From Minisyncoccota bacterium (GTDB lineage Bacteria; Patescibacteriota; Minisyncoccia; Phycocordibacterales; UBA9973), in the NCBI GenBank assembly GCA_031972855.1, contig DALYDY010000005.1:1-52315 (forward strand): a stretch of DNA of 52,315 nt, written 5' to 3'. The notes beneath the pieces are model-generated. The model did no database searches, had not been told where the DNA came from, and was given only the letters and a program-made list of their open reading frames with translations. Shown here in pieces: positions 20,603 through 36,893 of this stretch. A program made the translations under genes and the position numbers. Positions within the stretch are counted from its first letter, which is position 1. Every line of letters begins with the position of its first letter.

Positions 20603-20643
20603 AATAAGTTCGTTGAAAAATCAATAATATAAACTATATAAAA

Positions 20644-21480: not shown

Positions 21481-21490
21481 TACGTAGAAA

Positions 21491-22990
21491 ATGAAACTTA
21501 CTATTAATAAAAATACAATCGAGACTAATAGTTTAGGCTTAATTGGAACAGGAGGAGAAGCAGATATTTATCAGTTAAATCAGACACATGTACTAAAAGT
21601 TTTTAAAGATTCTAGGCATCCTGATTATACTGGTAATATTAATGCTCAAGCTGGTGCTCGCGAAAGAATTCGTGTTCACCAAGAAAAGTTACTACAATTT
21701 CCTAAAGGACTTCCATCACAAGTGATAACCCCTTTGGAAATAGCATACGATGTTAGGGGTGCTGTCAGAGGATATATGATGAAACTTATACCTCAAGGGG
21801 TAACGCTTTGGCAATATTCTCAACCAGGCTCATATGTTCGTGGATCTGATGAAGGAAAAATAATATCTTTTCTTCGTTCTATGTATGAAGTTATTATTCA
21901 AATTCACTCAAAAAAAATTGTGATAGGAGACTTCAATGATTTAAACATACTTGTTGATCAAGTATTTCATCCTTGGTTTATTGATTCAGATAGTTATCAA
22001 TTTGGTAAATTCTTGTCAAAAACTTTTGATGAACGTTTTGTTGATCCGCTTTTGTGTATTACCGCAACAGTGGCTACTCATCCTGATATTTGTTCTGATG
22101 GGAAAAGTCATATTGTACTCAGTAAACCACACGGAGAGAAAAGTGACTGGTACGCATTTGCTTCAATGGTCATGCAGACTCTTTGTTCTGTTGGTCCTTA
22201 TGGTGGTGTATATCGTCCAAAATTAAATACGTCGTCTGTGTCACAACACTTACGTCCTATGCACCGCATCTCTATACTTCATCCTGAAGTAATCTATCCT
22301 AAAAAAGCACGCTCTCTTGATTTGTTGCCAGATAATCTTGTTTCGTATTTTGAAGATGTATTTAAAAATGATGTTCGTGGTATTATGCCAAAATCACTTT
22401 TAGATACACTTCGTTTTACAACTTGTACTACTTGTCATACAGTTCACGCTCATGCTGTTTGTCCAAATTGTAACAAACACGTTTTACAACCAATTACTTC
22501 TATTTTTAGAGGTAAGGTTAATGCAGAACGTATTTGGAACACTCGAGGAATTATAGTTACTGCTTCATATGACCATGAATTAGTGTATATCTATCATGAC
22601 GGTATAAGCTATCGCCATAGTAATGGAAATGAAATTCTTCGTGAATCTTATAATCCGTTCATTACATTCTATGTGTCAGGATCTTACACAGTTTATGTTC
22701 GTGGAAATGTACTTTCAGTATTTCACTCTGATAATACTAGAGCAGATTATCCTATTGATGGTAAAACAGGAAATAGGGTAGCTCTCTCTGGTAATAGATT
22801 AGTTTGGATTTCCGATGGGGTTATTACGACAGAAGAAAATATTCTTGGCGTAACAACAACAAAAAAACTTGGAACAGTTCTTGGTGGAAACACCGATATT
22901 TGGACAAGTGACAATGTTGGGTTTGGAAAGTATCGCGCAGGTGAAATAGTTAGATATTTTATTTTTTCTCCAACATACAGTTTTGAATGA
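21491..22990 (+). CDS. YegI-like Ser/Thr protein kinase with CxxC..CxxC Zn ribbon and beta-rich C-terminus (N-terminal part of a frameshifted gene)
   Basis: IGTGGEADIY, VLKVF, IVIGDFNDLNILV, FIDSDS and CTTC...CPNC. Confidence 0.85.
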   Translation: MKLTINKNTIETNSLGLIGTGGEADIYQLNQTHVLKVFKDSRHPDYTGNINAQAGARERIRVHQEKLLQFPKGLPSQVITPLEIAYDVRGAVRGYMMKLIPQGVTLWQYSQPGSYVRGSDEGKIISFLRSMYEVIIQIHSKKIVIGDFNDLNILVDQVFHPWFIDSDSYQFGKFLSKTFDERFVDPLLCITATVATHPDICSDGKSHIVLSKPHGEKSDWYAFASMVMQTLCSVGPYGGVYRPKLNTSSVSQHLRPMHRISILHPEVIYPKKARSLDLLPDNLVSYFEDVFKNDVRGIMPKSLLDTLRFTTCTTCHTVHAHAVCPNCNKHVLQPITSIFRGKVNAERIWNTRGIIVTASYDHELVYIYHDGISYRHSNGNEILRESYNPFITFYVSGSYTVYVRGNVLSVFHSDNTRADYPIDGKTGNRVALSGNRLVWISDGVITTEENILGVTTTKKLGTVLGGNTDIWTSDNVGFGKYRAGEIVRYFIFSPTYSFE

Positions 22991-23396
22991 CAATATTACA
23001 TTACCTCCAATTGCTGGAAAAGTAATTGAAAGTAATGTTTATTTCAGTCAAACATATATTTGGTACTTTATTCTTGTTCAAGAATTAGGTATTCAAAAAG
23101 TACATACATATCTTATTGATTCTAAAACAGGAACACTTATTGCAACAGCTGTAGGCCAAGCAAATGATGGGTCGTGGATAGGGTCAACTAAAGGTAAACT
23201 TGCCTCAGGTAATTTTCTTCTTTCACCATCAGATGATGGTATTGTAAGAATAGAAGCAAATGGAGGAACACTTCATGTTGCTAAAAAATTTCCTGACACG
23301 TATGACATAGTTGATTGTCATACAAATCTATTTCCAGGTAAAACAGGGCTTTCAATTATTTCTTCTCAAGAAATATGGCAAGTCTCAATTAAATAA
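22983..23396 (+). CDS. Probable C-terminal continuation of the kinase in the +1 frame
   Basis: Only a TTG start, no ribosome-binding space, 8-nt overlap at AGTTTTGAATGA. Removing one T fuses the two frames (...YSLNDNITLPP...). Confidence 0.6.
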   Translation: MNDNITLPPIAGKVIESNVYFSQTYIWYFILVQELGIQKVHTYLIDSKTGTLIATAVGQANDGSWIGSTKGKLASGNFLLSPSDDGIVRIEANGGTLHVAKKFPDTYDIVDCHTNLFPGKTGLSIISSQEIWQVSIK

Positions 23397-23430
23397 AACA
23401 ATTCAAAAAACACTTTTAATTTTAAACAAA

Positions 23431-24549
23431 ATGTCAAACAAAGTTTTTCATGGGTATGATCCCAAAAACGCAGAAGACTTCTCTTACAATCCCAATATGG
23501 CATTGGTACAAGAAGCAGCTCTCGCATACGCAAGAGTTAATAATTTACATCCAGGAACAAGCGATAAAATAAAGCTTGCATTGCTGTTGATTGATGCACA
23601 ACGTGACTTCTGTCATAAAGAAGGAACGCTTTACGTAGGTGGCCGAACTGGTGATGGTGCTATAGATGATTCAAAGCGAATTGCTGAGTTCATTTATAAC
23701 AATGTCGGAATCATTTCAAAAACCATTGCAACACTCGATACGCACTTTCCGTGGCAGATTTTTTTCTCTAATTTTTTCGTAAATCGAAAAGGAGAAGAAT
23801 TACAGCCTCATACATTGATCGATGTAGCAGTTGATAATGGCCGTGACATTCTAGTTAATCTTGATTTGGCAGGAAATTTGCTTAACAGTGATATTCTTCC
23901 TAATCCAAAGATTGCTGGTGAATTTAAGGTTAATCCAGCATGGCTACACAGTCAATGTTTGCATTATTGTAAAAGCTTGAAAGATCCAAACAGTGGTCGT
24001 TCGAAGTACACATTGTATCTGTGGCCGTTACATTGCCTTATTGGCAGTATTGGACACACTCTTGTTGGTGTTATTGATGAAGCTCGTCAGTTTCACTCTT
24101 TTGCTCGTTCTTCACAGCCAGAAATTGAAATAAAAGGAGGTAATCCTTTAACTGAAAATTACTCAATCGTCCAACCAGAAGTGTTGACTCTTTTTGATAA
24201 TTTAAACAGTCCTATTGCACAACGCAATGTTTCATTTCTAAAGCAGTTACTCAACTATGATATGGTTGTAATTGCCGGACAAGCTTCAAGTCATTGTGTG
24301 GCTTCATCAATCGATGACATCCTTGCAGAGATTAATGCTAAAGATCCTTCTTTAGCAAAGAAAGTATATATCCTTCGTGATTGTACTTCCGCAGTGGCTG
24401 TCCCTGATGGGAATGGTGGATTTTTTGCAGATTTTACTGATCAAGCAGAAGCAGCTTTCAAACGTTTTGCTGATGCTGGTATGAATGTTGTAAACTCTAC
24501 CGATCCAATTAGTACTTGGCCTGGTGTTGCTAGTACTTTATATTCATAA
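23431..24549 (+). CDS. Cysteine hydrolase (isochorismatase/nicotinamidase superfamily), long form
   Basis: LLLIDAQRDF, TLDTH, WPLHC and AGQASSHCV motifs; start at MSNKV. Confidence 0.9.
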   Translation: MSNKVFHGYDPKNAEDFSYNPNMALVQEAALAYARVNNLHPGTSDKIKLALLLIDAQRDFCHKEGTLYVGGRTGDGAIDDSKRIAEFIYNNVGIISKTIATLDTHFPWQIFFSNFFVNRKGEELQPHTLIDVAVDNGRDILVNLDLAGNLLNSDILPNPKIAGEFKVNPAWLHSQCLHYCKSLKDPNSGRSKYTLYLWPLHCLIGSIGHTLVGVIDEARQFHSFARSSQPEIEIKGGNPLTENYSIVQPEVLTLFDNLNSPIAQRNVSFLKQLLNYDMVVIAGQASSHCVASSIDDILAEINAKDPSLAKKVYILRDCTSAVAVPDGNGGFFADFTDQAEAAFKRFADAGMNVVNSTDPISTWPGVASTLYS

Positions 24550-24558
24550 CACTTGCCC

Positions 24559-24591
24559 AGTGTGACAAAGCTTTAAAAACTTTGTCACACT
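24559..24591. repeat. Intercistronic hairpin between the hydrolase and vWA genes
   Basis: agtgtgacaaag-ctttaaaaa-ctttgtcacact, no strong U-tract. Confidence 0.6.
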
Positions 24592-24636
24592 TAATAAAAT
24601 AGTTTTAAAATCAAACAACAATTAAATAAAAAAAAC

Positions 24637-25422
24637 ATGTCAAACAACACAACACTGCTCAATGATGCAGTAAATAATGGAAATCTTTCACCTGATGCTT
24701 TAGTTGCAATGAATAATATTCCTGATTTAGGATTAGCATTGCAACATGCAATGGGGGTGAATATTGATGACATTAATTCCAGTGAAATTACATTGGTAGC
24801 AATGCTCATCGATGATTCAAGCTCAATCAGAAGTGGTGGAAATGAACGCATTGTTTGTGATGGCCATAATATGGTTATCGAATCTATTAAAGATTCCAAA
24901 CAAAAAAACGGCGTTCTTATACTAACAAAGTATTTGAATGGAAAAGTTTTATGTCCTTGGGCTCCTATAGATCAGGCGGTGATTATGGACTCACAAAATT
25001 ATCACGCAAATGGTAGTACACCACTTTATGATCAGACCGTTGAATTCCTTGCATTAATTGCCGCGAAGACCGAAGAGTTTGAGCAAATGGCCGGTGTTCC
25101 TGTTCGTAGTATAAGCCTTATCATTAGTGATGGTGCTGACTATGGTTCATACACACAAAAGCCTCATAATGTATCTGCTGTAGTTAAGAGTATGTTAAAA
25201 AGTGAAAAGCATATCATTGCAGCTATGGGTATCGATGATGGCTCTACTGATTTCAAAAAAATATTCTCAAGTATGGGATTAGAAGATTCATGGATCCTTA
25301 CACCAGGTAATTCTGAAAAAGAAATTCGTGCATCATTTAGAATGTTTTCTCAGAGTGCTGTCCGTGCAAGCCAAAGCGGTGCAGGATTTAGCAAAACCGC
25401 AATGGGTGGTTTTGGAAATTAA
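24637..25422 (+). CDS. von Willebrand factor A domain protein (YegL/TerY-like)
   Basis: MIDAS motifs LIDDSSSI, NGSTPLYD and IISDG. Confidence 0.85.
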   Translation: MSNNTTLLNDAVNNGNLSPDALVAMNNIPDLGLALQHAMGVNIDDINSSEITLVAMLIDDSSSIRSGGNERIVCDGHNMVIESIKDSKQKNGVLILTKYLNGKVLCPWAPIDQAVIMDSQNYHANGSTPLYDQTVEFLALIAAKTEEFEQMAGVPVRSISLIISDGADYGSYTQKPHNVSAVVKSMLKSEKHIIAAMGIDDGSTDFKKIFSSMGLEDSWILTPGNSEKEIRASFRMFSQSAVRASQSGAGFSKTAMGGFGN

Positions 25423-25455
25423 GTTTTAAAAAATAGTTCTTTCTGTTCTTTTTAC

Positions 25456-25531
25456 AAAGCGATGATATATTCATCGCTTTTTTTATTTTTAATAAATAAA
25501 CAATAAAAAAAGTCCCGCATTAGAGCGGGAC
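25456..25531. terminator. Back-to-back terminators for the vWA operon (+) and pncAB (-)
   Basis: aaagcgatga/tcatcgcttt plus T-run; gtcccgc/gcgggac preceded by an A7 run. Confidence 0.7.
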
Positions 25532-25544
25532 CTGTATGAGGTCC

Positions 25545-27449
25545 TTATACCTCACATTTTTTACTGTAGGTTTCGTGATACTGCAGAGCTTTTTTGTAAG
25601 CCTCTACTGTTTCAGGGTGACCCATGGCTTTGGCGGCATTGTCTGAAATTTTCACACAATATTTGCCGTCAATTGAGTAGGGTTTCGAAACGATTGATAA
25701 CTGCTTCAATCCCAAATTGTTGGTCAACTTTGTGCCCCAACCAAATGATATTTTTGTTTGATCAGCAAATTTATTTGTTATATTGATCATGTCAGGAATA
25801 TCGAGCCCGTCACTTGGGACCGACATTTTTCCTTTAGGATCAATATTAAATGATTTGTACTTTTCAAAAAGACTTGGAATTGCTTCCATTGGATCTTTTG
25901 AATCAATCCTAAAGCCTTTCCAATTATGGAAGACTTCTTTTGGAAGAAACTTGAAAGCAAAATCTGTACCATATGTATCAGGTAGGGAAATTGATAATGC
26001 ATAGCTATATTTTTTCCACCACGATTCATGTAGTTTTATGAATGGTTTTTTTATTGATTCGATTGAACCATCAAATTCCATTGCAACCATTCCCATAGAA
26101 AGTTCGTGGGCACAAGTACCAATCGGCATCAAGTCATACTTGGAAGCCAACGATACTTTTGAAGTACCGACAAACTGCGAACCCAATTCTTCAGCACAGC
26201 GTGATATAACAAAATCGTGCCACATAGTTCCAAAGCTTCGGCGATTACCGAAGTCTGAGAAGAATATTTTTGGATTATCTTTGATAATCTTAATATTTTT
26301 ACTCAAACGTTGAATACCTTCCGCATATACCGCCTCACGTTCCATCCGGGACATTTTTTTGAGTTGTGCTCGGTAATAAAGACCATTCACAATTCTTAAT
26401 GTTGGAATTTCTGCATGTTTTGAGTGTATCCACGGGCCCTTGGTTCTTATATCAAGCTGGCCGTTTTCAATGCCGAACGTAGGTTCGGGAATCCGCAAGT
26501 TTGCCAAATGATCCAAATATGGTTCATCAAACATTCTTGTTTCGTATTCATTTACACCACGTAAGTAATGTAACTCCGTCCTGGTTGCTTGTAATGCTAT
26601 AACATGAGCATATTCAGCCATAAAATCATCTTCAGTGATGAATTGGGCTAAATGTACATCTTTGGTACGGTTTTTGAATCTCCATTCCATTTCAGCATTA
26701 GCTAGGTGTGGGTGATCAAACAGAAAATTTCCCATTGAAAATTTGTAGAAGTCATCTTCCAAAACAGAAGTGACTATTGGCTCCTCGAGCATTGATTGGT
26801 CGAGCAAGTCCAAGTTTAGAGGAGGTAATCGTTTGATTGGTTTTTCTAAATGATTTCTTTTGATTGGTTGCTCACAAACATCAACGGTTGTTGTTTGGAT
26901 TGCGCCACTCATTTTCATCAAATGAATAGCGTCTCTTTCATCGTTCATCTTTACATTCACTGCTGCCATTGCATCAACTAGGAAAAAGGTTTCAAAACCA
27001 TTTTTAATGGAATCTAAAACTGTTGCTTTTACGCAATAGTCTGTAGCGAGGCCTCCAATATAAACTGTTTTAATTCCTTGGCTTTTTAGGAAGTCTTCAA
27101 GGTTCATACCTTGTCCTTCTACTGTACCGTGTTCATCGAATGCAGAATATGCATCCTCGTTACCCATACCTTTTGAGAGTATGTATGCAGTTGAAGGGAA
27201 GATTAGATCTTTGTGAAATTCGGCACCATGCGTATTTTGCACACAATGCTCTTTCCATTTTATGAAATGACTTGTATCTTTTGGATGCCAGTCACGAGTG
27301 AAAATTATGAGCCAGCCACTTTTTTGGGCATACTCAATCATTTTGTTCCAAGTGCCGATTAAAAGATCAGCACCTTCTACTCCCAAGGCTCCGCCAGGGA
27401 AGAAGTCTTTTGCAAGGTCAACCAAGACCAAAGCTTTCTTTGTTTTCAT
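25545..27449 (-). CDS. pncB: Fusion of nicotinamidase (PncA) and nicotinate phosphoribosyltransferase (PncB)
   Basis: N-half VDLAKDF, TRDWH, HCVQ, SKG and GLATDYCV; C-half DDFYKFSM, DFGNRR, GTCAHE, PDTYG, RIDS, SDGL, FGWGT and KISDN. Confidence 0.92.
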   Translation of the reverse strand: MKTKKALVLVDLAKDFFPGGALGVEGADLLIGTWNKMIEYAQKSGWLIIFTRDWHPKDTSHFIKWKEHCVQNTHGAEFHKDLIFPSTAYILSKGMGNEDAYSAFDEHGTVEGQGMNLEDFLKSQGIKTVYIGGLATDYCVKATVLDSIKNGFETFFLVDAMAAVNVKMNDERDAIHLMKMSGAIQTTTVDVCEQPIKRNHLEKPIKRLPPLNLDLLDQSMLEEPIVTSVLEDDFYKFSMGNFLFDHPHLANAEMEWRFKNRTKDVHLAQFITEDDFMAEYAHVIALQATRTELHYLRGVNEYETRMFDEPYLDHLANLRIPEPTFGIENGQLDIRTKGPWIHSKHAEIPTLRIVNGLYYRAQLKKMSRMEREAVYAEGIQRLSKNIKIIKDNPKIFFSDFGNRRSFGTMWHDFVISRCAEELGSQFVGTSKVSLASKYDLMPIGTCAHELSMGMVAMEFDGSIESIKKPFIKLHESWWKKYSYALSISLPDTYGTDFAFKFLPKEVFHNWKGFRIDSKDPMEAIPSLFEKYKSFNIDPKGKMSVPSDGLDIPDMINITNKFADQTKISFGWGTKLTNNLGLKQLSIVSKPYSIDGKYCVKISDNAAKAMGHPETVEAYKKALQYHETYSKKCEV

Positions 27450-27487
27450 AAATTTACTTTATTTAATTGTTTTTCAATGTTCTTTAT

Positions 27488-27506
27488 TAGTGTCTTTATT
27501 ACACTA
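27488..27506. promoter_or_regulatory. Operator box 3 (putative NrtR site) overlapping the pncAB extended -10
   Basis: TAGTGT-CTTTATT-ACACTA; minus-strand TGA-TATAGT at 27511-27503. Confidence 0.8.
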
Positions 27507-27591
27507 TATCATAATGTAGATTTAGTGTATATATTTTTATTTATTATAAACCATATATTTAAATAAGTCAATAGTAGTATAATTATCTATA

Positions 27592-27610
27592 TATTGTATT
27601 TATTACACTA
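27592..27610. promoter_or_regulatory. Operator box 4 (putative NrtR site) at the nadD promoter
   Basis: TATTGT-ATTTATT-ACACTA directly before TGA-TATACT (27613-27621). Confidence 0.72.
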
Positions 27611-27627
27611 TATGATATACTGTATTT

Positions 27628-28209
27628 ATGAAAGATAATCATAAACATATAGGACTCTTGTTTGGATCATTCAATCCTATTCATGAGGGGCACATCGCTC
27701 TGGCAGAAGAGGCTCTTTTAGAAAAAACTGTTGACGAAGTGTGGTTTGTTGTTTCTCCTCAAAATCCTCAAAAAGACAAAAAAACACTCGCTTCATTTGA
27801 AGATAGGGTCAATATGGTAGAGATTGCAATTGAAGGGCTTTCAAATATATCTGTTTCCAAAATTGAAGAATATTTATCTGTACCTTCATATACTTATCAC
27901 ACACTTGAGTTATTAAGAGAACAACATCCAGAATATATTTTTTCTATTATTGGTGGTAGTGATATTTTAGAAACACTACACACTTGGAAAAATTCAGTTG
28001 AAATTATTTTACATCACGACTTTATTGTACGTTCTAGAAATAAAGAACCTATAATTATTCCTGAAGGTGTACGAGTCAAAGTTCTTTCTGGAATAAAAGA
28101 ACTTTCAGCAACCCTAATTAGACAAGATATTACAGATCAGATTTTAGAAAAAGAATCTATCAATCCACTAGTTATAAAATATATAAAAGAAAATCAACTA
28201 TATAAATAG
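27628..28209 (+). CDS. nadD: Nicotinate-nucleotide adenylyltransferase
   Basis: GLLFGSFNPIHEGH, PSYTYHTL, IIGGSD, W.N and LSATLIR. Confidence 0.93.
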   Translation: MKDNHKHIGLLFGSFNPIHEGHIALAEEALLEKTVDEVWFVVSPQNPQKDKKTLASFEDRVNMVEIAIEGLSNISVSKIEEYLSVPSYTYHTLELLREQHPEYIFSIIGGSDILETLHTWKNSVEIILHHDFIVRSRNKEPIIIPEGVRVKVLSGIKELSATLIRQDITDQILEKESINPLVIKYIKENQLYK

Positions 28210-28211
28210 CG

Positions 28212-28664
28212 TTATTGTTGTATCCACAAAACAGCTTCTTCTAAAGTTTTTGCTTGGTGTATTTTATATCGTTCGCAAATAATATCTATATTTCCTTTTC
28301 TCCAAAAACCTTCAGGACAGACCACAATCATTTTATTGGGTTTTGTACCAAATAAACCAAGTTCTAAAAGACTGATAGGGGATTTTGTTTTGGGATCAAA
28401 ATATAAAATAACTTTATGTGCTTGTTCAAGTCCATCAAGTTCCCAATTTACTTGATTATAAAATTCATAATTTTCTTTTTCTTGTTTCCAATCGCTGTTC
28501 CAAGAATCTCGTCTAGGATTAAATATTGTCCACTCTGTATCTTTTAGCATATAAGTCACACGATCTTGCCATTTTTCTGCTATATCCATTTCGATACTTC
28601 CAGCAAGGAATACTGAAGGATGTGTTTGGTCTGGAATATTTTCTGGTGGCTTAATCATTCTCAT
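28212..28664 (-). CDS. Nucleoside 2-deoxyribosyltransferase-like protein
   Basis: VFLAGSIE, W.Q, FNPRR, WEL..L..A and SPISLLELG. Confidence 0.8.
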   Translation of the reverse strand: MRMIKPPENIPDQTHPSVFLAGSIEMDIAEKWQDRVTYMLKDTEWTIFNPRRDSWNSDWKQEKENYEFYNQVNWELDGLEQAHKVILYFDPKTKSPISLLELGLFGTKPNKMIVVCPEGFWRKGNIDIICERYKIHQAKTLEEAVLWIQQ

Positions 28665-28681
28665 AATACTAATTTTATTAT

Positions 28682-29347
28682 TTAAAAATTTTTTATTTCT
28701 AGTTCTTTTACTGCACGAGTATAAAGCTTTGCTGGACGTTGTCTCATACCTGTTAGAACGTGTTTTGTTTCTTTTATAAAACCAAGTTGATCTATTTGTT
28801 TTCTAAAATTTCTTTTATCAAGTTTTTTGTTTAGAATAACTTCATATACTTCTTGTAGTTGTGATAGTGTAAAGAGTTTTGGTAATACATTTATACCTAT
28901 TGTTGTGTACTCAAGCTTGCCTCTAAGACGTTTAATACCATAATTAATAATATCTTTATGGTCAAATGCTAGTTGTGGAAGTTTTTTTATATCGTATAGT
29001 GCTGGGGCTTGAGCCTGACTATTTTCTTTTGAATAAGTAAGTGGAGAGGGAATAAGAGCTATATAGGTAATTGAAAAAACTGGTCCACGTGGATCACGGC
29101 CTGGTGTATAAAAAGTATATAACTGTTCAAGATATGAAGGTTTTACACCTGTTTTTTCTTCTAGTATACGAATGGCTGCAATTTCTGCTGTTTCGCCAGC
29201 TAGTAAATAACCTCCAGGAAGTGCATGTATACCTTGGAATGGTTTACCTTCACGCTCAATCAGAAGCACTTTTAAGGCTCCGTCTTCTATTGTTGCTAGT
29301 ATTATATCTACAGTCACGGTTGGATTTAAAAACTGTTTTTCTTTCAT
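28682..29347 (-). CDS. nrtR: NrtR-family regulator (Nudix plus winged HTH)
   Basis: PTVTVD, LPGG...RILEEKTG, LEQLYTF...RDPRG, LAFDH, FTLSQLQ.VYE.IL, DKRNFRK and RPAKLY. Confidence 0.9.
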   Translation of the reverse strand: MKEKQFLNPTVTVDIILATIEDGALKVLLIEREGKPFQGIHALPGGYLLAGETAEIAAIRILEEKTGVKPSYLEQLYTFYTPGRDPRGPVFSITYIALIPSPLTYSKENSQAQAPALYDIKKLPQLAFDHKDIINYGIKRLRGKLEYTTIGINVLPKLFTLSQLQEVYEVILNKKLDKRNFRKQIDQLGFIKETKHVLTGMRQRPAKLYTRAVKELEIKNF

Positions 29348-29355
29348 AATTTATA

Positions 29356-31296
29356 TTATAACTCTTTTAGCCATGTATCAGCTAGAGCGTCTGAAGGCAT
29401 ACGCCAGTCGCCACGAGGAGAAAGTGAAACAGATCCTACTTTTGGTCCGTCAGGCATTACAGAGCGTTTCCATTGATTTTTGAAAAATCTACTAATAAAT
29501 GATTTTAACCATTTTTTTATAACATCTTCACTAAAATCTCCTTCGAAAGCAATCGTCGCAAGTGCTAGTATTTTTTGTGGACTACTACCCCAACGCACAA
29601 GGTGATATAGAAAGAAATCATGAAGAATATATGGTCCAACAACATCTTCTGTTTTTTGAGTTACAACATCATCTGTCATTCTTGTTAGTTCTGGAGATAT
29701 AGGTGTTTCAAGAATATCAATAAGAACTTTTTTAAGTTTTTCATCACTCATTTCTGCTACATGACGAACAATATATTGAACAAGAGTTTTTGGAATACTT
29801 CCATTTACATTATAGTGAGCCATTTGATCACCGTTGAAAGTACACCAACCGAGAGCACTTTCAGAAAGATCTCCTGTACCAATAACCATCCCGCCGACTT
29901 GATTTGCTTTGTCCATAAGTATCATTGTTCGGTATCTAGCTTGGCTATTTTCAAAAACAACATCTTCGTTTTTTGGGTCGTGACCTATATCTTTAAAATG
30001 TTGCAATACTCCATCACTGATTGATATTTCTTCTAAGGTTACTCCTGTAGACTCTGCAAGAATAACGGCATTATTCTTTGTTCCTGATGTTGTACCAAAT
30101 CCTGGCATTGTTATGGCTACAATATTTTCTTTTGGAAGATTAAGAGCTTCACAAGTTTTTAAACAAACAAGAAATGCAAGAGTAGAATCAAGACCACCAG
30201 AAAGACCTATAACCATTTTTTTAACTCCAGAACTCTCGAGGCGTTTTGCTAAGCCTGTTACTTGGATATTAAAGATATCGTCAACAACTTCGATTTGCTC
30301 TGCTTTATTGTCAGGAAGGAAAGGAGTTTTGCTTACTGTACGTTTTAAAGGTAGGTCTTTTACACTTTGTATATTAACGGGAATTTTTTGATATTTTTGA
30401 TTTTCTACTGAATATTGATTGTCGGCAAAAGAATTTGTACGATTTCTTTCTGTAACTAAATGGTCTATATCAATATCAGCATAAGTTATTACTGTTTCTC
30501 TTTTAAAACGAGGTGATTCTGAAATCATTATTCCATTTTCCGCAATGATTGAATGTCCACTAAAAACCACATCAGTTGTTGATTCATCAACTCCAGAAGA
30601 AACGTATGCGTACGCACTTATTGTTTTAGCGGATTGCATTATGCTTAGATTTTTTCTATAAGCAGCTTTTCCAACAAGTTCATTTGAAGCTGAAAGATTT
30701 AAAAGTATTGTGGCACCATTTAAAGCATGTAGGGTTGATGGGGGAATAGGCATCCATCCGTCTTCACATATATCAATACCAAAAGTAATTTGTTCATTTG
30801 TTGTATCAGAAAATAATAAAGAACGACCATAAGGTATATCTTCATTATTTATTTTAATTGTATTTTCGTGAGTTTCGAATCCAGAAATAAACCAACGTTT
30901 TTCATAAAATTCTTTATAGTTTGGAAGGTGTAGTTTTGGAACAACTCCAACTATTTTTCCATTTGTATATATAACAGCTGCATTGATAATTCCACGAACT
31001 GTACGTATTGGAGCGCCGACAACAATAGTCGCTTCTATATCTCTAAGTTCTTCACTCAATTTTTCAAGACCTTCTGCAACATCTTTGTGCAATGATTCAT
31101 TAAGAAACAAATCTCCAGCAGTATAGCCAGTCAAAGCAAGTTCTGGAAGAACTATTAGTCTTGCGCCTTCAAAATAAGCATTTTTAATACTTTCTAGACA
31201 GATAATGATATTTTTTTGTACGTCTCCAATCGAAAGACGGGGACTAATGGTTGCAATTCTAACAAATGTGTAAGGAGTCTTGTGTTTTGATGACAT
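29356..31296 (-). CDS. nadE: Glutamine-dependent NAD+ synthetase
   Basis: Nitrilase domain (PELALTGY, KLHLPNYKEFYE, DICED) plus GLSGGLDSTLA, ENSQARYR, GTGDLSE and SPEL. Confidence 0.97.
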   Translation of the reverse strand: MSSKHKTPYTFVRIATISPRLSIGDVQKNIIICLESIKNAYFEGARLIVLPELALTGYTAGDLFLNESLHKDVAEGLEKLSEELRDIEATIVVGAPIRTVRGIINAAVIYTNGKIVGVVPKLHLPNYKEFYEKRWFISGFETHENTIKINNEDIPYGRSLLFSDTTNEQITFGIDICEDGWMPIPPSTLHALNGATILLNLSASNELVGKAAYRKNLSIMQSAKTISAYAYVSSGVDESTTDVVFSGHSIIAENGIMISESPRFKRETVITYADIDIDHLVTERNRTNSFADNQYSVENQKYQKIPVNIQSVKDLPLKRTVSKTPFLPDNKAEQIEVVDDIFNIQVTGLAKRLESSGVKKMVIGLSGGLDSTLAFLVCLKTCEALNLPKENIVAITMPGFGTTSGTKNNAVILAESTGVTLEEISISDGVLQHFKDIGHDPKNEDVVFENSQARYRTMILMDKANQVGGMVIGTGDLSESALGWCTFNGDQMAHYNVNGSIPKTLVQYIVRHVAEMSDEKLKKVLIDILETPISPELTRMTDDVVTQKTEDVVGPYILHDFFLYHLVRWGSSPQKILALATIAFEGDFSEDVIKKWLKSFISRFFKNQWKRSVMPDGPKVGSVSLSPRGDWRMPSDALADTWLKEL

Positions 31297-31304
31297 ATAA
31301 TATA

Positions 31305-31323
31305 TAGTGTTTATAGTACACTA
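31305..31323. promoter_or_regulatory. Operator box 5 (putative NrtR site) upstream of nadE-nrtR
   Basis: TAGTGT-TTATAGT-ACACTA, 9 nt from the nadE start codon. Confidence 0.8.
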
Positions 31324-31395
31324 ATACTTTAGCAAATTCATTTGTCTGAGTCAACTAGTTTTGTTCATTTATAAAATTACATATACAATAATCAT

Positions 31396-32094
31396 ATGAA
31401 TACTTTAATTACACACAACGGGAAGGAAATTCCTGTTCTTGGTGAATTTGCAGAAAAAGCAATTACTTCACCAATTTTTATTTCTTGGATTAATAATATT
31501 AATCAATCTTTTATTCTCCATTCAATAAAAATTCAATCTCTCGATACTACACATTCTGGTTCTAGAGTTATTTTTATTAAAATTATTGCAAGTGTTACAT
31601 ATCCAGGAGGGAGTGAACACAACACCGTAATTTTTCTTCGTGGTAATGCTGTTGTTATTCTTCCTGTACTTATTTGCAATTCAAAACGTTATGCGCTTTT
31701 AGTAAAACAAGCACGTCTACCTGTTGGTCAAGAAATATTTGAACTTCTCGCTGGGATGATGGATGGATTATCAGATCCAAAAGAAGTTATTCTACGCGAA
31801 CTCGAAGAGGAGGCAAATTTTGTTTCTAAAGCAGGAATTGTTAAGGATGATATACGCCAACTTTCATCAAAAGGTATTATGTCATCTCCTGGTATCTTGG
31901 ATGAATGTACATTTCCATTTTTTCTTGAAAAAGAAATTTCTAAAGAATTATTTGATTCTTTAGATGGTAGTATGGGTGGTCTCGAAGAAGAAGGGGAGCA
32001 AATAAGAGTCAAGATTGTACCCTATGAAGATATTGCTAATTATTGTACAGATTCAAAGACTTTAGCCACTTTATACCTTTACGAACATCGTTAA
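31396..32094 (+). CDS. NUDIX hydrolase, NUDT14/ADP-sugar pyrophosphatase-like
   Basis: VIFLRGNAV, KQARLPVG..FELLAGMMD...RELEEEA, SPGILDE and EGEQI; promoter TTGTTC-17-TACAAT. Confidence 0.85.
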   Translation: MNTLITHNGKEIPVLGEFAEKAITSPIFISWINNINQSFILHSIKIQSLDTTHSGSRVIFIKIIASVTYPGGSEHNTVIFLRGNAVVILPVLICNSKRYALLVKQARLPVGQEIFELLAGMMDGLSDPKEVILRELEEEANFVSKAGIVKDDIRQLSSKGIMSSPGILDECTFPFFLEKEISKELFDSLDGSMGGLEEEGEQIRVKIVPYEDIANYCTDSKTLATLYLYEHR

Positions 32095-32110
32095 AGATTT
32101 TTGTCCCAAA

Positions 32111-32168
32111 GCACCTTTTAAGCAAAGGTGTTTTTTTATTTGACATATTAATAAATATATAATACAAT
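32111..32168 (+). promoter_or_regulatory. Terminator followed by the overlapping prs promoter
   Basis: gcaccttt/aaaggtg plus T7; TTGACA 32140-32145, 17-nt spacer, TACAAT 32163-32168. Confidence 0.7.
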
Positions 32169-32191
32169 AATTTCAAACAAATTAACAAAAA

Positions 32192-33178
32192 ATGAACAAT
32201 AAGGACACAATTTATGTGTGTGTTGTTGGAAACAAACATGCATTACAAAAAGAAATCATTGAAGCTCTTAAGAAGATTCACTCACAAGTTGTTGAGATTC
32301 ATAACGACATATTCCGTTTTGAAAGTGGAGAACACAAACCTGTAATTAAAGAGTCTGTTAGAAATAAAGATGTTATTGTTATCTCTACTTTGGAAGAGAA
32401 TATTGATACTGAAGTATTAAAACTTCTATTTACTATAGACGCTCTGAGACGGGCAAGTGCCAACAGAATAGATGTGCTGATGCCATACCTATATTATGAC
32501 AGGCAAGATAAAACCAGTGGTAAAAGAGAATCTATTAGTTGTGCTATTCTCGCAAGATTTTATGAATTGTGTGGTGCTAGTAGTATGACTACTGTCCATC
32601 TACATAATGAAGCAATCGAAGGGTTCTTTCATGGACCTTGTGACTCTATAGGAACTAGGAAGCTTTTTTGGAATCATCTGAAAAATTATTGCATTGCTAA
32701 AGACGAATATTTTGACCCTTCTGAATGGATGATAATTTTTCCTGACGAAGGTGCAAGTAAAATTGTTAGAGACTATGTAAAGAGAGCTGGTGCTGGAGGT
32801 TATGCTGGATTTTCAAAACAGCGAATTGTTGCAAATGATGTTGAGTGGATGGATTTTTTTGGTAAAGTTGAAGGGATGCGTTGTTTTGTATTTGATGACA
32901 AAATAGATACTGGCGGAACTTTGGTAAAAGCCGGCAAATTATTGATAGAACAAGGAGCTAAAGAAACAATAGCTGCTTGTACTTACGGATTACTAAATCG
33001 TACAGCACCTACAGATCTTCAAAATTCAGCATATTCAAAAATTTTCATTACGGATTTAATGAATATTCCAGAATCAAAACTTTTTAACAAGCTTGAGATT
33101 GTTGGAACGGCAGAATATTTAGCTGAAGTCCTTATCAAAAAACACCACGGAGAATCTCTCCGTGAGGAATATTGGTAG
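32192..33178 (+). CDS. prs: Ribose-phosphate pyrophosphokinase family protein (divergent)
   Basis: FESGE, ESVRNKDV, PYLYYDRQDK, PDEG and DDKIDTGGT. Confidence 0.9.
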   Translation: MNNKDTIYVCVVGNKHALQKEIIEALKKIHSQVVEIHNDIFRFESGEHKPVIKESVRNKDVIVISTLEENIDTEVLKLLFTIDALRRASANRIDVLMPYLYYDRQDKTSGKRESISCAILARFYELCGASSMTTVHLHNEAIEGFFHGPCDSIGTRKLFWNHLKNYCIAKDEYFDPSEWMIIFPDEGASKIVRDYVKRAGAGGYAGFSKQRIVANDVEWMDFFGKVEGMRCFVFDDKIDTGGTLVKAGKLLIEQGAKETIAACTYGLLNRTAPTDLQNSAYSKIFITDLMNIPESKLFNKLEIVGTAEYLAEVLIKKHHGESLREEYW

Positions 33179-33263
33179 TTCTTTAAAAGCCCTTTTTTGG
33201 GCTTTTTCTTTTTGGCTTATTTATGTGTTAGGATTTATATATAATAATAAATTAAATTTAATC

Positions 33264-34919
33264 ATGGCCTATCTTCTATTTCCTGGTAGACACCTTCTTA
33301 ATACAAAATTCCAAGAGACCTATTTATGGGACATTCTTCGTTTGCCAGTAGGTAAGCTTGATCTTGTTGGGCAGACATCAATTTCTTCAGAAGAAAGAAT
33401 TACTCACATAATATTTGCGGTTACATCTTCCAATCAATCCAATTCCCGTTACAATCCAATTCCATTTTTTGAAAGAGCAATTACTCTTGACCGCTTTGCC
33501 CATCAATACAAAGAAGCTCTCGATATTAGTTATCAGATAATAGGTATACCTCATTTTAATCCTACAGATAATTTTGCTTCATATATATTAAAAGAATTAC
33601 AAGAACAAGAAGAAGATATAGTTCGTCTCGATCCTTCAAATACTATTGTACTATGTTCAACTCATGCTTTGATTAAACAATATAAAGATTTGGGATTTGC
33701 AATTCTTCCTGCAGAGTATGATCTTGAAAAGAATGAATACACAAAAGAGACTCCAATTAGTACTCTAAAAAAATTCGTAAATATTGGTGAAAATTGGAAA
33801 CAAGATAATACACTGACTGATTTTATGTCCAAAGCAACAAGAGAAGTTTGGACTGATTTCCCAACAATTCCAAGAAATATTTTACGTTTGTGGAATGACC
33901 CACTTCTAACAGAGAGCGGTAGTCTTACTATTGATAGAAATTATAGTACTTATGCAATAGGTATGGGTCATCAAGTATTGCTTGATATGAAGTATAAAGA
34001 TATTAAAGGTGCTGTTAAGTCAGGGAAGATTGTTGATGAAGGTTGTGCTGATGGCGCTCTCATGGTGCGTTTGGCGGAAGATTTTCCTGATTCTGATATT
34101 GTAGGTATTGAACTTACTACAGAATTTACAGCACGTTGTCAGGAGCGTTTGCGAGCTGGAGAATTTGGCGGTACTTATGTACACTTTCATCAACGCAATC
34201 TGCTCGAGCCTATTTTTGATGAAAATAGTATAGATACAACTATTTGTAATTCTACAACGCATGAATTATGGTCATACGGTAACAAAGAAGAAAGTCTTAT
34301 TGGATATCTAAAAAATAAATACACTCAATTGCGTAAAGGGGGACGAATAGTTATTCGTGATGTTGTAGGTCCTGAAAATAAAGATCAAGAAGTTTATGTA
34401 TCTTTAAATAGAGAAGACGGTTCAAATGATGATGTTTTGAAAGATTGTAGTAGTCATCAAGAATTACAAAATCATATTACTAATCTTTCAACATATGGAA
34501 GATTTGTTAGATTCGCACAAGACTATCTTATAGATATGAGAAATGATGGACGTAGAGGAGAAGATACAAAAATCTCTTTTAGAGAAGAAGAAATTGATGG
34601 TAAAAAATACATAGTTACTACATTGAAAAATATAGTTGAATTTATGACCAAAAAAGATTATGTCGATAATTGGCGAAGTGAACTTAATGAAGAGTTCGCA
34701 TATTGGAGTTTTAGTGACTGGAAAAAAGCACTAAGCAATCACGGATTTAAAGTTATAGAAAATCCAAATGAAAAAGAAGGAGTCTCTGTGAGTTATAGAA
34801 ATGATTGGATTGTAAAGAATCGCTGGGAAGGTAAGGTTGAACTTTTTAAAAATAAAAATGGAGAACTTATACTTTTGGAATATCCTCCAACACACATGGT
34901 ATTAGTTGCCGAAAAATAA
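33264..34919 (+). CDS. Fusion of a nucleotidyltransferase-like N-terminal domain and a class I SAM-dependent methyltransferase
   Basis: LLFPGRH...IIFAVTSSN....RYNP N-terminus; IVDEGCADG motif I, GIELT and NSTTHE; start at MAYLL. Confidence 0.65.
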   Translation: MAYLLFPGRHLLNTKFQETYLWDILRLPVGKLDLVGQTSISSEERITHIIFAVTSSNQSNSRYNPIPFFERAITLDRFAHQYKEALDISYQIIGIPHFNPTDNFASYILKELQEQEEDIVRLDPSNTIVLCSTHALIKQYKDLGFAILPAEYDLEKNEYTKETPISTLKKFVNIGENWKQDNTLTDFMSKATREVWTDFPTIPRNILRLWNDPLLTESGSLTIDRNYSTYAIGMGHQVLLDMKYKDIKGAVKSGKIVDEGCADGALMVRLAEDFPDSDIVGIELTTEFTARCQERLRAGEFGGTYVHFHQRNLLEPIFDENSIDTTICNSTTHELWSYGNKEESLIGYLKNKYTQLRKGGRIVIRDVVGPENKDQEVYVSLNREDGSNDDVLKDCSSHQELQNHITNLSTYGRFVRFAQDYLIDMRNDGRRGEDTKISFREEEIDGKKYIVTTLKNIVEFMTKKDYVDNWRSELNEEFAYWSFSDWKKALSNHGFKVIENPNEKEGVSVSYRNDWIVKNRWEGKVELFKNKNGELILLEYPPTHMVLVAEK

Positions 34920-34931
34920 ATTATGTATAAA

Positions 34932-34961
34932 AAAATCCCCTCAGTATGTCGAGGGGATTTT
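34932..34961. terminator. Bidirectional terminator
   Basis: aaaatcccctc/gaggggatttt. Confidence 0.7.
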
Positions 34962-34967
34962 GTCCAC

Positions 34968-36086
34968 CTATTTAAGAACAGGAGACATGGCAAAACTTTT
35001 AGATATACCAGAAATGTATGTTCCAATACGATCAGTCTCTGTTACTAAAGGGTTTTTAAAATATTCTGCTACAGCATAATTGATTGCGTCGCCTTGGTCT
35101 TTATATCCCATATGGTTAAGCATCATTGCTCCAGAAAGGATTAAAGCTATTGGACTGGCAATATTCTTACCAGTAATACTTGGTGCGGTGCCGTGTGTTG
35201 CTTCAAAAATAGAGAATGTATTACCTGAGTTTACACCAGGGCAATATTGAACACCACCAATTAGTCCTGCCGCCAAACTGCTTAAAATATCACCGTACAA
35301 ATTTTCTGTAACGATAATATCGAAGCGCTCAGGGTTGGTGACCATAGTTTGAGCAACATCATCGATATGCATGCTTTCAAGTGTAAGTTTTGAATCCACA
35401 CTTCTCTCATTGTTAAATATTTGCTCACATACTCTTACAAAAAGACCGTCAGTCTCTTTCATAATATTTGCTTTTGCAACTACTGTGATTTTTTTTCGGC
35501 CGTTTTCTTCCGCAAACAAGATTGCTTTACGCATTAGGCGATGAGTATTTTTAAATGAAATTAATTTTAAGCCCACAGCCGTTTTTGTCGGGTCAAAATA
35601 AGTATTTACTCTTTCATTAACAAATTTAATAATATCGTTAGTACGACTATGTTCTGGCCCATATTCGAATCCTGCGTACAAGTCCTCCATGTTTTCCCGG
35701 AAGATTATCATATCAATCTTACTAGGATCTTTGAGATTGCTCGGCATACCCTCCATATATTTTATAGGGCGGATACAAGCAAATTGTTCGAGTAAATTAC
35801 GCAATTGTACATTTACTGAACGGTAGCCTGTACCTTCAGGTGTGTTAGCTGGACCTTTGATTGCAACATTGAAATTTTCTTCATCGTGATGAAGGAGTAC
35901 TTTCATTGTTGCGTCAGGAAGGGGGCTTCCATGTTTGGCAAGCGCTTGCTCACCAATATCAAGATCAATCCATTCAATCACAGCTACTTTTTCCATAGCA
36001 GCTTCGATAACTTTTTTTGTTGCGGCCATAATCTCGTCCGAGATGCCATCACCGTTTAAAACGGGAATCTTTATTTTTTTCTTCAT
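34968..36086 (-). CDS. icd: Isocitrate dehydrogenase-like beta-decarboxylating dehydrogenase
   Basis: GDGI..EI, IKGP..TP, RSVNVQLR, RENMEDLYAG, KANIMK, NLYGD and FEATHGTAP; promoter TTGACT-17-TATAAT at 36140-36112. Confidence 0.85.
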   Translation of the reverse strand: MKKKIKIPVLNGDGISDEIMAATKKVIEAAMEKVAVIEWIDLDIGEQALAKHGSPLPDATMKVLLHHDEENFNVAIKGPANTPEGTGYRSVNVQLRNLLEQFACIRPIKYMEGMPSNLKDPSKIDMIIFRENMEDLYAGFEYGPEHSRTNDIIKFVNERVNTYFDPTKTAVGLKLISFKNTHRLMRKAILFAEENGRKKITVVAKANIMKETDGLFVRVCEQIFNNERSVDSKLTLESMHIDDVAQTMVTNPERFDIIVTENLYGDILSSLAAGLIGGVQYCPGVNSGNTFSIFEATHGTAPSITGKNIASPIALILSGAMMLNHMGYKDQGDAINYAVAEYFKNPLVTETDRIGTYISGISKSFAMSPVLK

Positions 36087-36195
36087 CTTTATTGGGTTTT
36101 TAGTTTGTTATATTATAGCACTTATATATTATATAGTCAATAACTAAAAAACCTCATAAAATATGGGTTTTTTAGTTATCACTTTCTTAATTTTT

Positions 36196-36870
36196 TTAAG
36201 CAGTTTGGTCTTCGTTTGATATTTCTTTTTTTAACTCCTCTTTTGTCATTACACCTTTTGTAATTTCTTTAGTGATTTTTTCATCTGCTTCTTGTTCGAG
36301 TTCTGTATCTGAAGGTATATCTTGACCCATTAAATAAGAATAATTATATTCACTACGCTCTGGTTCTGTTTTGAATAATCTTCTAAGTAAACCTCTAAAA
36401 CCGCGCTGTTTTTTATTTTCAGGAATTGTTTTCAAATTATCTTTTCCAGCAACTCCACCATATACTGTTTGGTCTATATCTCTTGTTTGAAAAGGAATAT
36501 CTGACCAAGTTCTATCTTTATAGTGCTGATTCATTGATTCGTGTTTTCTAAATTCTTCAGCATCGTGTTGTTCATAGGCTTTTCCAATAGCATCACGTAG
36601 TCCTTTTGTATCTGGTTCTATATTATATTCTTGATATCTTTCGGCAATTTCTTCATCAGTTAGTTCTCTGTATGAATCTGCCTCTGGTCCTTTGTATTCG
36701 CTTTCAACATCTTCAGCTATCTCTTTTTTATTATCAATAGTATCTTCAATAGAAGGTGATAGGTCTGCTACTTCTTTTTTATTTTTTCCATCTACAGCGT
36801 CTTCATATCTATCAAAGTTGTCTGGATTGTTTGGGTTAACTCCTTTTATAAAATGTTCTTCTTTTTTCAT
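36196..36870 (-). CDS. Hypothetical acidic, probably disordered protein
   Basis: E/D/K-rich 224-aa ORF downstream of recA. Confidence 0.65.
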   Translation of the reverse strand: MKKEEHFIKGVNPNNPDNFDRYEDAVDGKNKKEVADLSPSIEDTIDNKKEIAEDVESEYKGPEADSYRELTDEEIAERYQEYNIEPDTKGLRDAIGKAYEQHDAEEFRKHESMNQHYKDRTWSDIPFQTRDIDQTVYGGVAGKDNLKTIPENKKQRGFRGLLRRLFKTEPERSEYNYSYLMGQDIPSDTELEQEADEKITKEITKGVMTKEELKKEISNEDQTA

Positions 36871-36893
36871 AAAAATTTAAATTAAGTAAATAA

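Follow-up and report, generated by a model that had tools for sequence, protein, structure and literature searches.

We have studied a stretch of 52,315 nt (contig DALYDY010000005.1 of the Minisyncoccota bacterium assembly GCA_031972855.1; hereafter the window, meaning that whole stretch), which carries a cluster of genes for rebuilding nicotinamide adenine dinucleotide (NAD+). Our reading, to which we give a probability of roughly 0.78, is that this cluster is the core of a 15.7-kb accessory island in a Paceibacteria/Nomurabacteria-like bacterium of the candidate phyla radiation (CPR), and that it encodes a complete Preiss-Handler salvage and recycling pathway controlled by the repressor NrtR. 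The island comprises 13 genes, from a PP2C gene to an isocitrate-dehydrogenase-family gene, and sits between efp and a gene adjoining recA. An earlier note made from the bare sequence had assigned the DNA to a CPR genome, and the host is confirmed as such by sequence comparison, the named best matches of its RecA being Minisyncoccia, Paceibacterota, Nomurabacteria, and Patescibacteria. The same note had delimited the cluster at 25545–33178; both positions are indeed gene ends, but the functional and evolutionary unit is larger (about 20481–36188, Table 1).

All the genes listed by the earlier note as clustered (for PncA, PncB, NadD, NadE, a NUDIX protein, and Prs) were found. Pfam and NCBIfam scans recovered the four enzymes of the Preiss-Handler route, NadD and NadE above curated NCBIfam cut-offs and PncA and PncB above Pfam cut-offs only. 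The PncA and PncB steps are both there as anticipated, but in one fused protein and not as two genes; the PncA catalytic motifs (D, K, and ATDYC) are readable in its sequence, and fused and unfused orthologues both occur across the CPR. Prs has canonical PRPS enzymes as its top PDB matches (E-value 1e-41), together with a phage PHROG match (E 2e-31). The expected NUDIX enzyme corresponds to the gene adjoining prs, which looks like an ADP-ribose pyrophosphatase (its top PDB sequence matches are enzymes of this kind, although weak, E 1e-5) and is also next to prs in the related loci L003, L007, and L086, but a second, central Nudix protein in the cluster is the repressor NrtR. On paper, therefore, the gene set leading from nicotinamide and ADP-ribose to NAD+ is complete, as had been proposed. 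We also considered Prs as an Adps-like enzyme feeding a "nicotinate ADPR-transferase" shortcut, and rejected this because Prs looks canonical, NadD and the Nudix ADP-ribose pyrophosphatase are present, and the canonical route is complete. The clustering of these genes is not due to chance: similar arrangements are seen again in many related loci, and so is the operator described below.

Table 1. Island features and their coordinates in the window (aa, amino acids; AF2, AlphaFold2; E, E-value; pLDDT, predicted local distance difference test; SAM, S-adenosylmethionine).
Feature	Coordinates	Strand	Basis
Genomic island, 15.7 kb, insertion relative to relatives	about 20481-36188		blastn against L083
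Two predicted NrtR operators upstream of the PP2C operon	20558-20576, 20584-20602		0 and 1 mismatch
PP2C-type Ser/Thr phosphatase (PphC/YegK-like)	20644-21480	+	PF13672 E 9e-14
YegI-like Ser/Thr kinase with zinc ribbon and C-terminal domain	21491-23396	+	hhalign to YegI
Long nicotinamidase-fold cysteine hydrolase, 372 aa, second nicotinamidase	23431-24549	+	AF2 pLDDT 95.4
vWA-fold protein with MIDAS motif, 261 aa, no Pfam family	24637-25422	+	AF2 pLDDT 94.2
PncA-PncB fusion (nicotinamidase and nicotinate phosphoribosyltransferase), 634 aa	25545-27449	-	Isochorismatase E 2e-27, NAPRTase_N E 3e-15, NAPRTase E 1e-33
Two predicted NrtR operators in the divergent pncAB/nadD intergenic region	27488-27506, 27592-27610		pattern match
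NadD, nicotinate-nucleotide adenylyltransferase	27628-28209	+	TIGR00482 130 bits (cut-off 112)
PF15891 nucleoside 2-deoxyribosyltransferase-like protein	28212-28664	-	PF15891 E 1e-32; between nrtR and nadD
NrtR, Nudix-related repressor, predicted to respond to ADP-ribose	28682-29347	-	PF21906 NrtR_WHD E 3e-23, PF00293 E 9e-13
NadE, glutamine-dependent NAD+ synthetase	29356-31296	-	NF002730 841 bits (cut-off 473)
Predicted NrtR operator common to the divergent nadE-nrtR-PF15891 genes and Nudix gene	31305-31323		perfect match
Nudix hydrolase, probable ADP-ribose pyrophosphatase	31396-32094	+	PF00293 E 1.5e-5; REUXEE residues intact
Prs, ribose-phosphate diphosphokinase	32192-33178	+	TIGR01251 229 bits (cut-off 113)
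551-aa protein: N-terminal domain, class I SAM methyltransferase, C-terminal domain	33264-34919	+	Methyltransf_31 E 5e-12
Isocitrate/isopropylmalate-dehydrogenase-family enzyme, last island gene	34968-36086	-	PF00180 E 4e-82

The repressor is built of an N-terminal Nudix-like domain and a C-terminal winged-helix DNA-binding domain, and matches NF050029 at E 8e-44, short of the equivalog cut-off. Its Nudix box is degenerate (RILEEK for REUXEE; in GYLLAGETAEIAAIRILEEKTGV I and K replace Glu), so that it should bind its ligand without hydrolysis, and going by these residues it is not expected to act as a hydrolase. Reading the intergenic regions revealed a repeated palindrome, TAGTGT-N7-ACACTA, with 10 matches in the window against 2.55 expected (0 of 100 shuffles reached 10). 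Its five best matches (0–1 mismatch; 20558, 20584, 27488, 27592, and 31305) all fall in intergenic regions of the island, where they overlap promoter-like hexamers or lie just beyond them and precede the start codons of the PP2C operon, pncAB, the co-oriented nadE-nrtR-PF15891 genes, and the Nudix gene. Specifically, the first pair lies between a promoter-like site at 20507–20536 and the ATG at 20644, the operator at 27488 is downstream of a minus-strand TTGACT-17-TATAAT site (27571–27543), the one at 27592 is 18 bp upstream of the nadD start, and the one at 31305 overlaps or directly follows both promoter-like sites of the divergent genes. The prs gene has its own TTGACA-17-TACAAT site at 32140, with terminator-like hairpins at 32108 and 33185.

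The same motif is conserved across lineages. In 80 related loci (1.33 Mb) there were 78 matches with at most one mismatch versus 2 in a reversed-sequence control, nearly all of the 78 upstream of pncB/pncAB, nadE, nrtR, the PP2C operon, or the long nicotinamidase gene, and the symmetrised consensus is tTAGTGTa-N5-tACACTAa. Operators of NrtR have been described as 21-bp palindromes with a GT-N7-AC core in a promoter-proximal position (Rodionov et al., 2008, PMC2330246). In that work, NrtR of Synechocystis and of Shewanella was shown to leave the DNA in the presence of ADP-ribose; nrtR-pncA-pncB-nadD-nadE and nrtR-prs-nadV are among the regulons it lists, and it set out their recycling logic, from NAD through ADP-ribose, ribose phosphate, and phosphoribosyl pyrophosphate (PRPP) back to NAD. 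The cluster of the window is an NrtR regulon of the classic type, serving Preiss-Handler salvage and recycling as known since 2008, and involves no new mechanism.

That the island is an insertion is evident from comparison with the closest relative available (L083). By blastn the flanks align with this locus at 81–87% nucleotide identity and 20434–36188 is replaced by about 54 bp; inspection of the alignment places the left junction near 20480. The earlier note had pointed to presence or absence between efp and recA in relatives as informative, and the island is missing from this site in all six RecA relatives inspected (RecA identities of 96% for L083, 82% for L084, 81% for L085, and 80% for L087, L249, and L250, L249 being a named Nomurabacteria), which keep the order FtsK-x-RecA-(small open reading frame)-EFP-S18-SSB-S6-TatD-MetRS without any NAD gene in the recA-efp interval. 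By parsimony, this empty site within conserved flanking synteny makes absence the ancestral state. Moreover, a database of 5.8 billion proteins contains no PncAB more than 67% identical to that of the island, although RecA proteins 96–97% identical are present in other assemblies, so the sister lineage appears to be without the cluster altogether. In a neighbor-joining tree, the PncB of the island groups with those of L086, L003, L004, L005 (Nomurabacteria), L006, and L010, and the first four of these share gene order with the island. Gain is the most economical reading, likely from another Paceibacterium or Patescibacterium of similar composition, a direction of transfer that we infer. The description of this DNA in the earlier note as a horizontally acquired countermeasure or scavenging module is therefore borne out as regards an acquired island and scavenging or recycling, the scavenging module being the better half of that statement, but a counter-defence function similar to that of phages is without support (see below).

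The cluster is widely distributed. Relatives of the PncB part with 56–67% identity appear only in unnamed or Nomurabacteria metagenome-assembled genomes (MAGs), followed by other CPR sequences at 40–50% (fusions included) and then by Alphaproteobacteria at about 36%. A scan of a genome collection retrieved 80 PncB loci, mostly from named Patescibacteria lineages (Nomura-, Sung-, Portnoy-, Nealson-, Taylor-, Uhr-, Giovannoni-, Harrison-, Falkow-, Yanofsky-, Doudna-, and Buchananbacteria, WWE3, and Saccharimonadales), with a few labelled as DPANN archaea or Acidobacteria. In most of the 80, NrtR and/or NadE adjoin PncB, as judged by tblastn of the window proteins, and the closest loci have nearly the order of the window, as in L003 (PF15891, Prs, Nudix, NadE, NrtR, NadD, PncA-PncB), L086 being similar. 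The earlier note had taken such a cluster to be exceptional for CPR bacteria; with the same type of PncB, mostly accompanied by NrtR and/or NadE, in dozens of Patescibacteria lineages, it is instead common among them. Our literature search on NAD salvage in CPR/Patescibacteria found nothing relevant.

Some of the MAGs with this type of PncB are labelled as DPANN, namely L053 (Nanoarchaeota), L075 (Aenigmatarchaeota), and L077 (archaeon). Perfect bacterial-type NrtR boxes are located upstream of PncB in L053 and L077, the latter also encoding a homologue of NrtR; the kinase/PP2C/nicotinamidase/vWA module described below is present in L075. Either the regulon is shared across domains or these bins are mislabelled.

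From what is known of these protein families, the island could work as follows. NrtR bound to the five operators, between promoter-like sites and start codons, would repress four transcription units, whose boundaries are likewise predicted. Consumption of NAD+ would raise ADP-ribose and, by analogy with characterised NrtR proteins, remove the repressor from the DNA. If the enzymes have the specificities typical of their families, nicotinamide would be converted to nicotinate by the PncA domain and by the second, long nicotinamidase, nicotinate and PRPP to nicotinate mononucleotide (NaMN) by PncB, NaMN to nicotinate adenine dinucleotide (NaAD) by NadD, and NaAD to NAD+ by the glutamine-dependent NadE. 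The Nudix enzyme, also on family grounds, would split ADP-ribose into AMP and ribose-5-phosphate, from which a constitutively expressed Prs would regenerate PRPP, the net result being that NAD+ consumption switches on NAD+ resynthesis. We propose that its physiological role is to scavenge niacin and nicotinamide and to keep NAD levels balanced in an organism that lacks de novo synthesis.

The first four genes of the island (20644–25422) are outside the coordinates of the earlier note and are arranged as an operon behind two predicted NrtR boxes. In profile comparisons with hhalign the phosphatase matches E. coli PphC (probability 94.4%, E 9e-8) and the kinase matches E. coli YegI (98.3%, E 1.6e-14, 286 columns including the zinc-ribbon region), the four cysteines of the ribbon (CxxC...CxxC) being nearly invariant. 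In the window the kinase gene is split (499 and 137 aa) by a 2-bp deletion near 22972, and it is intact (635 aa) in a second assembly, GCA_031972175.1, which in turn lacks about 20 bp at 35218–35247, truncating the isocitrate-dehydrogenase-family gene. These indels represent either population heterogeneity or assembly error. The long nicotinamidase scores 18 bits against a Pfam isochorismatase cut-off of 27, and its top 19 Foldseek matches in the PDB are all nicotinamidases or pyrazinamidases; the D55/K235/C289 triad and the DTH and WPxH motifs are conserved. In Acidobacteria-labelled nrtR-X-pncB-nadE loci it takes the place of pncA, which argues that the 372-aa protein would be a working nicotinamidase. 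The family has about 1900 cluster representatives.

The fourth protein of the operon gave no match in Pfam or in PDB sequence and profile searches, and its fold was settled by AF2 and Foldseek only, von Willebrand factor A (vWA)/integrin-I domains being the best PDB matches and accounting for the majority of the first 50 (E-values as low as 1e-6). In its metal ion-dependent adhesion site (MIDAS) motif, DxSxS...T...D, the SxS, T, and last D are invariant and the first D (D59) nearly so. Similarity to E. coli YegL is weak (hhalign probability 13.5%), and among the plasmids of PLSDB the protein was not found, but there are 1154 homologues, about 50–57% identical across phyla. The combination of vWA, PP2C, and a Ser/Thr kinase with zinc ribbon corresponds to the TerY-P triad (Anantharaman et al., 2012, as summarised in PMC11090510), a type often linked to conflict systems (PMC11090510). 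PADLOC gave only faint matches for the operon proteins (E 0.002–0.006), and none for the vWA protein.

This module accompanies NrtR and PncB, and mostly NadE as well, in at least 14 of the PncB-anchored loci. A second sample was anchored on the vWA protein, and so was unbiased for NAD genes (GC content 0.27–0.73; 23 loci with enough upstream flank). Here the nicotinamidase gene was directly upstream of that for vWA in 22 of the 23 and kinase and PP2C genes were present in 20, with NrtR in 11, a CPR-type box in 12, and PncB in 4. Overall, the module (L022, L025-L028, L030, L033, L040, L045, L052, L060, L075, L080, L081, L089, L090, L171-L247) ranges from CPR to high-GC genomes of many phyla, often behind NrtR boxes; a 6.3-Mb genome has a stand-alone unit of nrtR divergent from PP2C-kinase-nicotinamidase-vWA with two boxes, and a two-gene form (box, nicotinamidase, vWA) exists in L223, L243, and L247. 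The nicotinamidase-vWA pair might be the undefined nrtX-nrtY of PMC2330246; we found no later paper using these names, nor any publication on the module in association with NrtR or nicotinamidase.

The operon at 20644–25422 may be an undescribed and widespread phospho-switch controlled by ADP-ribose and NrtR that gates nicotinamide removal. Since TerY-P-type triads are otherwise tied to conflict systems and NrtR senses the product of NADases, the boldest reading is a conflict-linked device. After NAD+ cleavage the module would convert nicotinamide to nicotinate, which the Preiss-Handler route of the cell itself could recycle, and rebuilders dependent on nicotinamide (phage NARP1 and NARP2, see below) would be starved. 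We consider this a long shot; comparative support for the four-gene module is good, and its role in conflict is pure inference.

The remaining accessory genes of the island are less easily placed. The PF15891 protein matches an uncharacterised PDB entry (4mcj, E 2e-21) and a PHROG family with function unknown (phrog_30579, E 3e-51). Its homologue in L086 (15337–15795) has a perfect NrtR box directly upstream (15807), though it is 4 kb away from the NAD cluster. By tblastn, PF15891 co-occurs with PncB, and mostly also with PncA and/or NadE, on 8 of 78 loci of viral collections (IMG/VR; L096, L097, L103, L105, L108, L116, L122, and L123, four of the contigs being larger than 400 kb), and a single-protein scan of viral contigs with PF15891 gave no match. 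As contigs in IMG/VR may include misclassified CPR DNA (e.g., L167), we draw no conclusion from this viral co-occurrence. The NrtR box and the genes found alongside suggest an unrecognised role of the protein in pyridine-nucleotide metabolism; as a guess, it could be an N-glycosidase acting on a pyridine nucleotide, for instance a nicotinamide mononucleotide nucleosidase. The 551-aa protein is conserved in the NAD clusters of L007 (69%), L045 (64%), and L020 (30%). Its N-terminal domain (33264–34043, 260 aa) has no Pfam or PDB match and contains invariant M-A-Y-x-L-x-P-G-R-H...T-x-F-Q and T-S-x-N...N-P motifs; an NMNAT-like nucleotidyltransferase was considered from the PGRH..T.FQ motif and, with no evidence for it, not adopted. 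The last gene, of the isocitrate-dehydrogenase family, reaches no NCBIfam equivalog cut-off.

The earlier note had likened the cluster to the NAD+ reconstitution pathways (NARP) by which phages rebuild NAD+. NARP1 consists of Adps and Namat, NARP2 of Nampt and Nmnat, and NARP3 of the PnuC transporter and a NadR-like kinase/adenylyltransferase (PMC13464706). Scans of the island proteins did not find the marker enzymes of any of the three. The only type II phosphoribosyltransferase of the island is of the PncB type (PF17767 and PF04095, NF003704), with no protein of the Nampt or Namat type, its adenylyltransferase is of the NadD type (TIGR00482) and not the NadM/Nudix bifunctional Nmnat, and no island protein has a PnuC or NadR domain in Pfam or NCBIfam. 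The recycling logic that the note saw is real but already published, being spelled out as the rationale of NrtR regulons (PMC2330246); the parallel with NARP is not supported. Preiss-Handler parts are nevertheless used by viruses. Agrobacterium phage Atu_ph07, a 490-kb jumbo phage (L251, record 186402–191071), encodes a PncB 35% identical to the PncB domain of the window, with an annotated ADP-ribose pyrophosphatase gene at a distance of about 3 kb, and PncB is found in other jumbo or huge phages (Phosso, LR7565xx). With identities of only 28–35%, these phage proteins say nothing about the island.

Other explanations of the island were weighed. One is vertical inheritance, with the recA-efp position ancestral and the island deleted in the relatives or moved within the genome without horizontal transfer. 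Its composition cannot be distinguished from that of the host, mobility genes and repeats are missing, the closest homologues belong to the same class-level lineage, and the position of the cluster varies among CPR genomes, so that it does rearrange. Yet the site is empty in every one of the relatives inspected (80–96% RecA identity), with conserved flanking synteny, and the nearest of them, with flanks at 81–87%, should carry a PncAB about 80–90% identical when the best database match is 67%, which makes this explanation unlikely. MAG contigs can also be chimeric, and two genes of the island show small indels between the window and GCA_031972175.1, as might be seen if the island came from another organism and was joined by mis-assembly or binning. 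Such an artefact is hardly credible, because GCA_031972175.1 (L001; 99.98–100% identical over the aligned 15547–35217 and 35248–37469) contains the entire island along with its two junctions, and the interior is found also on a Logan contig from SRR4000971; in addition, the composition of the island matches the flanks and the junctions are in intergenic DNA that aligns with L083 right up to the breakpoints.

An acquired island could also be a countermeasure to NAD+-depleting immunity or toxins, i.e., a cellular analogue of NARP directed at TIR/SIR2-type NADases of the bacterium itself, of its host cell, or of a competitor. Induction by ADP-ribose, the direct product of NADases, would fit (PMC2330246), as would the recent gain of an accessory element, its TerY-P-like triad, a module type often conflict-linked (PMC11090510), the PncB of jumbo phages, in Atu_ph07 adjoining the annotated ADP-ribose pyrophosphatase, and the strong PHROG match of PF15891. 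Against this, besides the missing NARP1, 2, and 3 markers, PADLOC gave no convincing defence-family match for ten island proteins (those other than NadD, NadE, and the isocitrate-dehydrogenase-like one), and Pfam revealed no NADase, TIR, SIR2, or defence domain in the window proteins scanned. Related clusters are common in many CPR lineages with a housekeeping-like content, and ADP-ribose arises from ordinary NAD consumers too, which is the published rationale of NrtR. We therefore regard a countermeasure as very unlikely and retain the acquired, NrtR-controlled salvage island as the preferred reading.

Several observations count against that preference. The promoter-like sites are not enriched over shuffles, prs is without an NrtR box in this genome, PncA-PncB scores below the NCBIfam equivalog cut-offs, and the assignment of the Nudix protein as an ADP-ribose pyrophosphatase is weak (E about 1e-5). 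The relatives were inspected as contigs only, and more distant ones could have a copy elsewhere. A search of the island for signatures of mobility found neither a tRNA nor an integrase, nor direct or inverted repeats at its ends, and there is no recombinase domain in any of its 13 genes (Pfam); its GC content is 0.343, with 0.333 and 0.347 in the flanks, and its tetranucleotide usage equals that of the host. With no signatures of mobility and a host-like composition, the mechanism and direction of transfer come from parsimony only.

The rest of the window contains ordinary housekeeping genes and the 5' two-thirds of the 23S rRNA gene (50187–52315, starting at 50187), which is the sole Rfam match. 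No 16S rRNA or tRNA gene was found in the window and the kilobases before the 23S are protein-coding, hence the rRNA genes appear to be unlinked. A class I aminoacyl-tRNA synthetase of 1164 aa (3043–6537, plus strand; tRNA-synt_1 and Anticodon_1) has a histidine-phosphatase domain (His_Phos_1, residues 521–673, E 4e-25) inserted in the middle of its catalytic domain, and weak homologues (24–29%, in two tblastn segments each) are found near PncAB in L014, L031, L034, L058, and L066. A second, small insertion relative to L083 is located at 16596–17619, both of its sides mapping to coordinate 8916 of that locus, and includes an open reading frame (16713–17579) of 288 aa without Pfam or family match. 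The 667-aa product of a gene at 66–2069 (plus strand) contains a Peptidase_S74 domain ("chaperone of endosialidase", E 4e-17). This intramolecular chaperone is typically found in the tail fibres and spikes of phages, and the surroundings here look chromosomal.

As a whole, these results indicate that a CPR lineage can gain autonomy for NAD+, by salvage of niacin and nicotinamide and recycling of ADP-ribose, as a single transferable and self-regulated block, and they show such a cluster to be no exception among the CPR, contrary to the earlier view. The feedback circuit of NrtR and ADP-ribose, with one conserved operator, extends across Patescibacteria into MAGs labelled as DPANN and Acidobacteria, which helps in working out what episymbionts depend on their hosts for. 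The new lead, and the part worth following up, is the TerY-P-like/nicotinamidase operon under NrtR. It is highly conserved, has no published function, and couples a TerY-P-like switch to a nicotinamidase under predicted NrtR control. Switches of this type may here become open to assay in a metabolic context for the first time.

Compared with known systems, the island resembles NARP in its net outcome, the regeneration of NAD+ from its precursors or cleavage products with expenditure of ATP, and NARP1 in having a Prs-family enzyme and one of the type II phosphoribosyltransferase family. It differs in belonging to a cellular genome, in using the canonical, amidated-to-deamidated Preiss-Handler chemistry through PRPP, NaMN, and NaAD and not ADP-ribose pyrophosphate, in having a PncB-type (NAPRTase_N) enzyme and a canonical-scoring Prs, without PnuC or NadR, and in its predicted control by NrtR. 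The operon at 20644–25422 encodes all three component types of the TerY-P triad or of E. coli YegI-PphC-YegL, but with a nicotinamidase-fold gene between those for the kinase and the vWA protein, with NrtR boxes and linkage to NAD genes and no tellurite-resistance or restriction/defence genes adjoining, and with a vWA protein not recognisably similar in sequence to YegL. The 372-aa hydrolase has the fold of Pnc1/PncA nicotinamidases (A. baumannii 2wta, yeast 2h0r, and M. tuberculosis 3pl1; template modelling scores of 0.72–0.81 on target), with the Asp-Lys-Cys triad and the metal-binding D-x-H and WPxH motifs in common, although it exceeds them in length by about 150–180 residues and has a beta-rich insertion as well as terminal helices, and its gene is almost always directly upstream of a vWA gene.

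The closest likeness is to the NrtR regulons of PMC2330246, with which the cluster has in common a Nudix plus winged-helix repressor with degenerate Nudix box, a palindromic operator with GT-N7-AC core placed after the promoter and ahead of the start codon, pncA, pncB, nadD, and nadE as targets, the neighbourhood of prs and an ADP-ribose-pyrophosphatase-type Nudix gene, and the same recycling logic. In contrast to those regulons, it belongs to a CPR bacterium, has its PncA fused to PncB, and shows no recognisable box at prs. It also includes the PF15891 protein and the kinase/PP2C/vWA/long-nicotinamidase operon, neither of which is named in that paper; here, moreover, the whole set is a strain-specific insertion.

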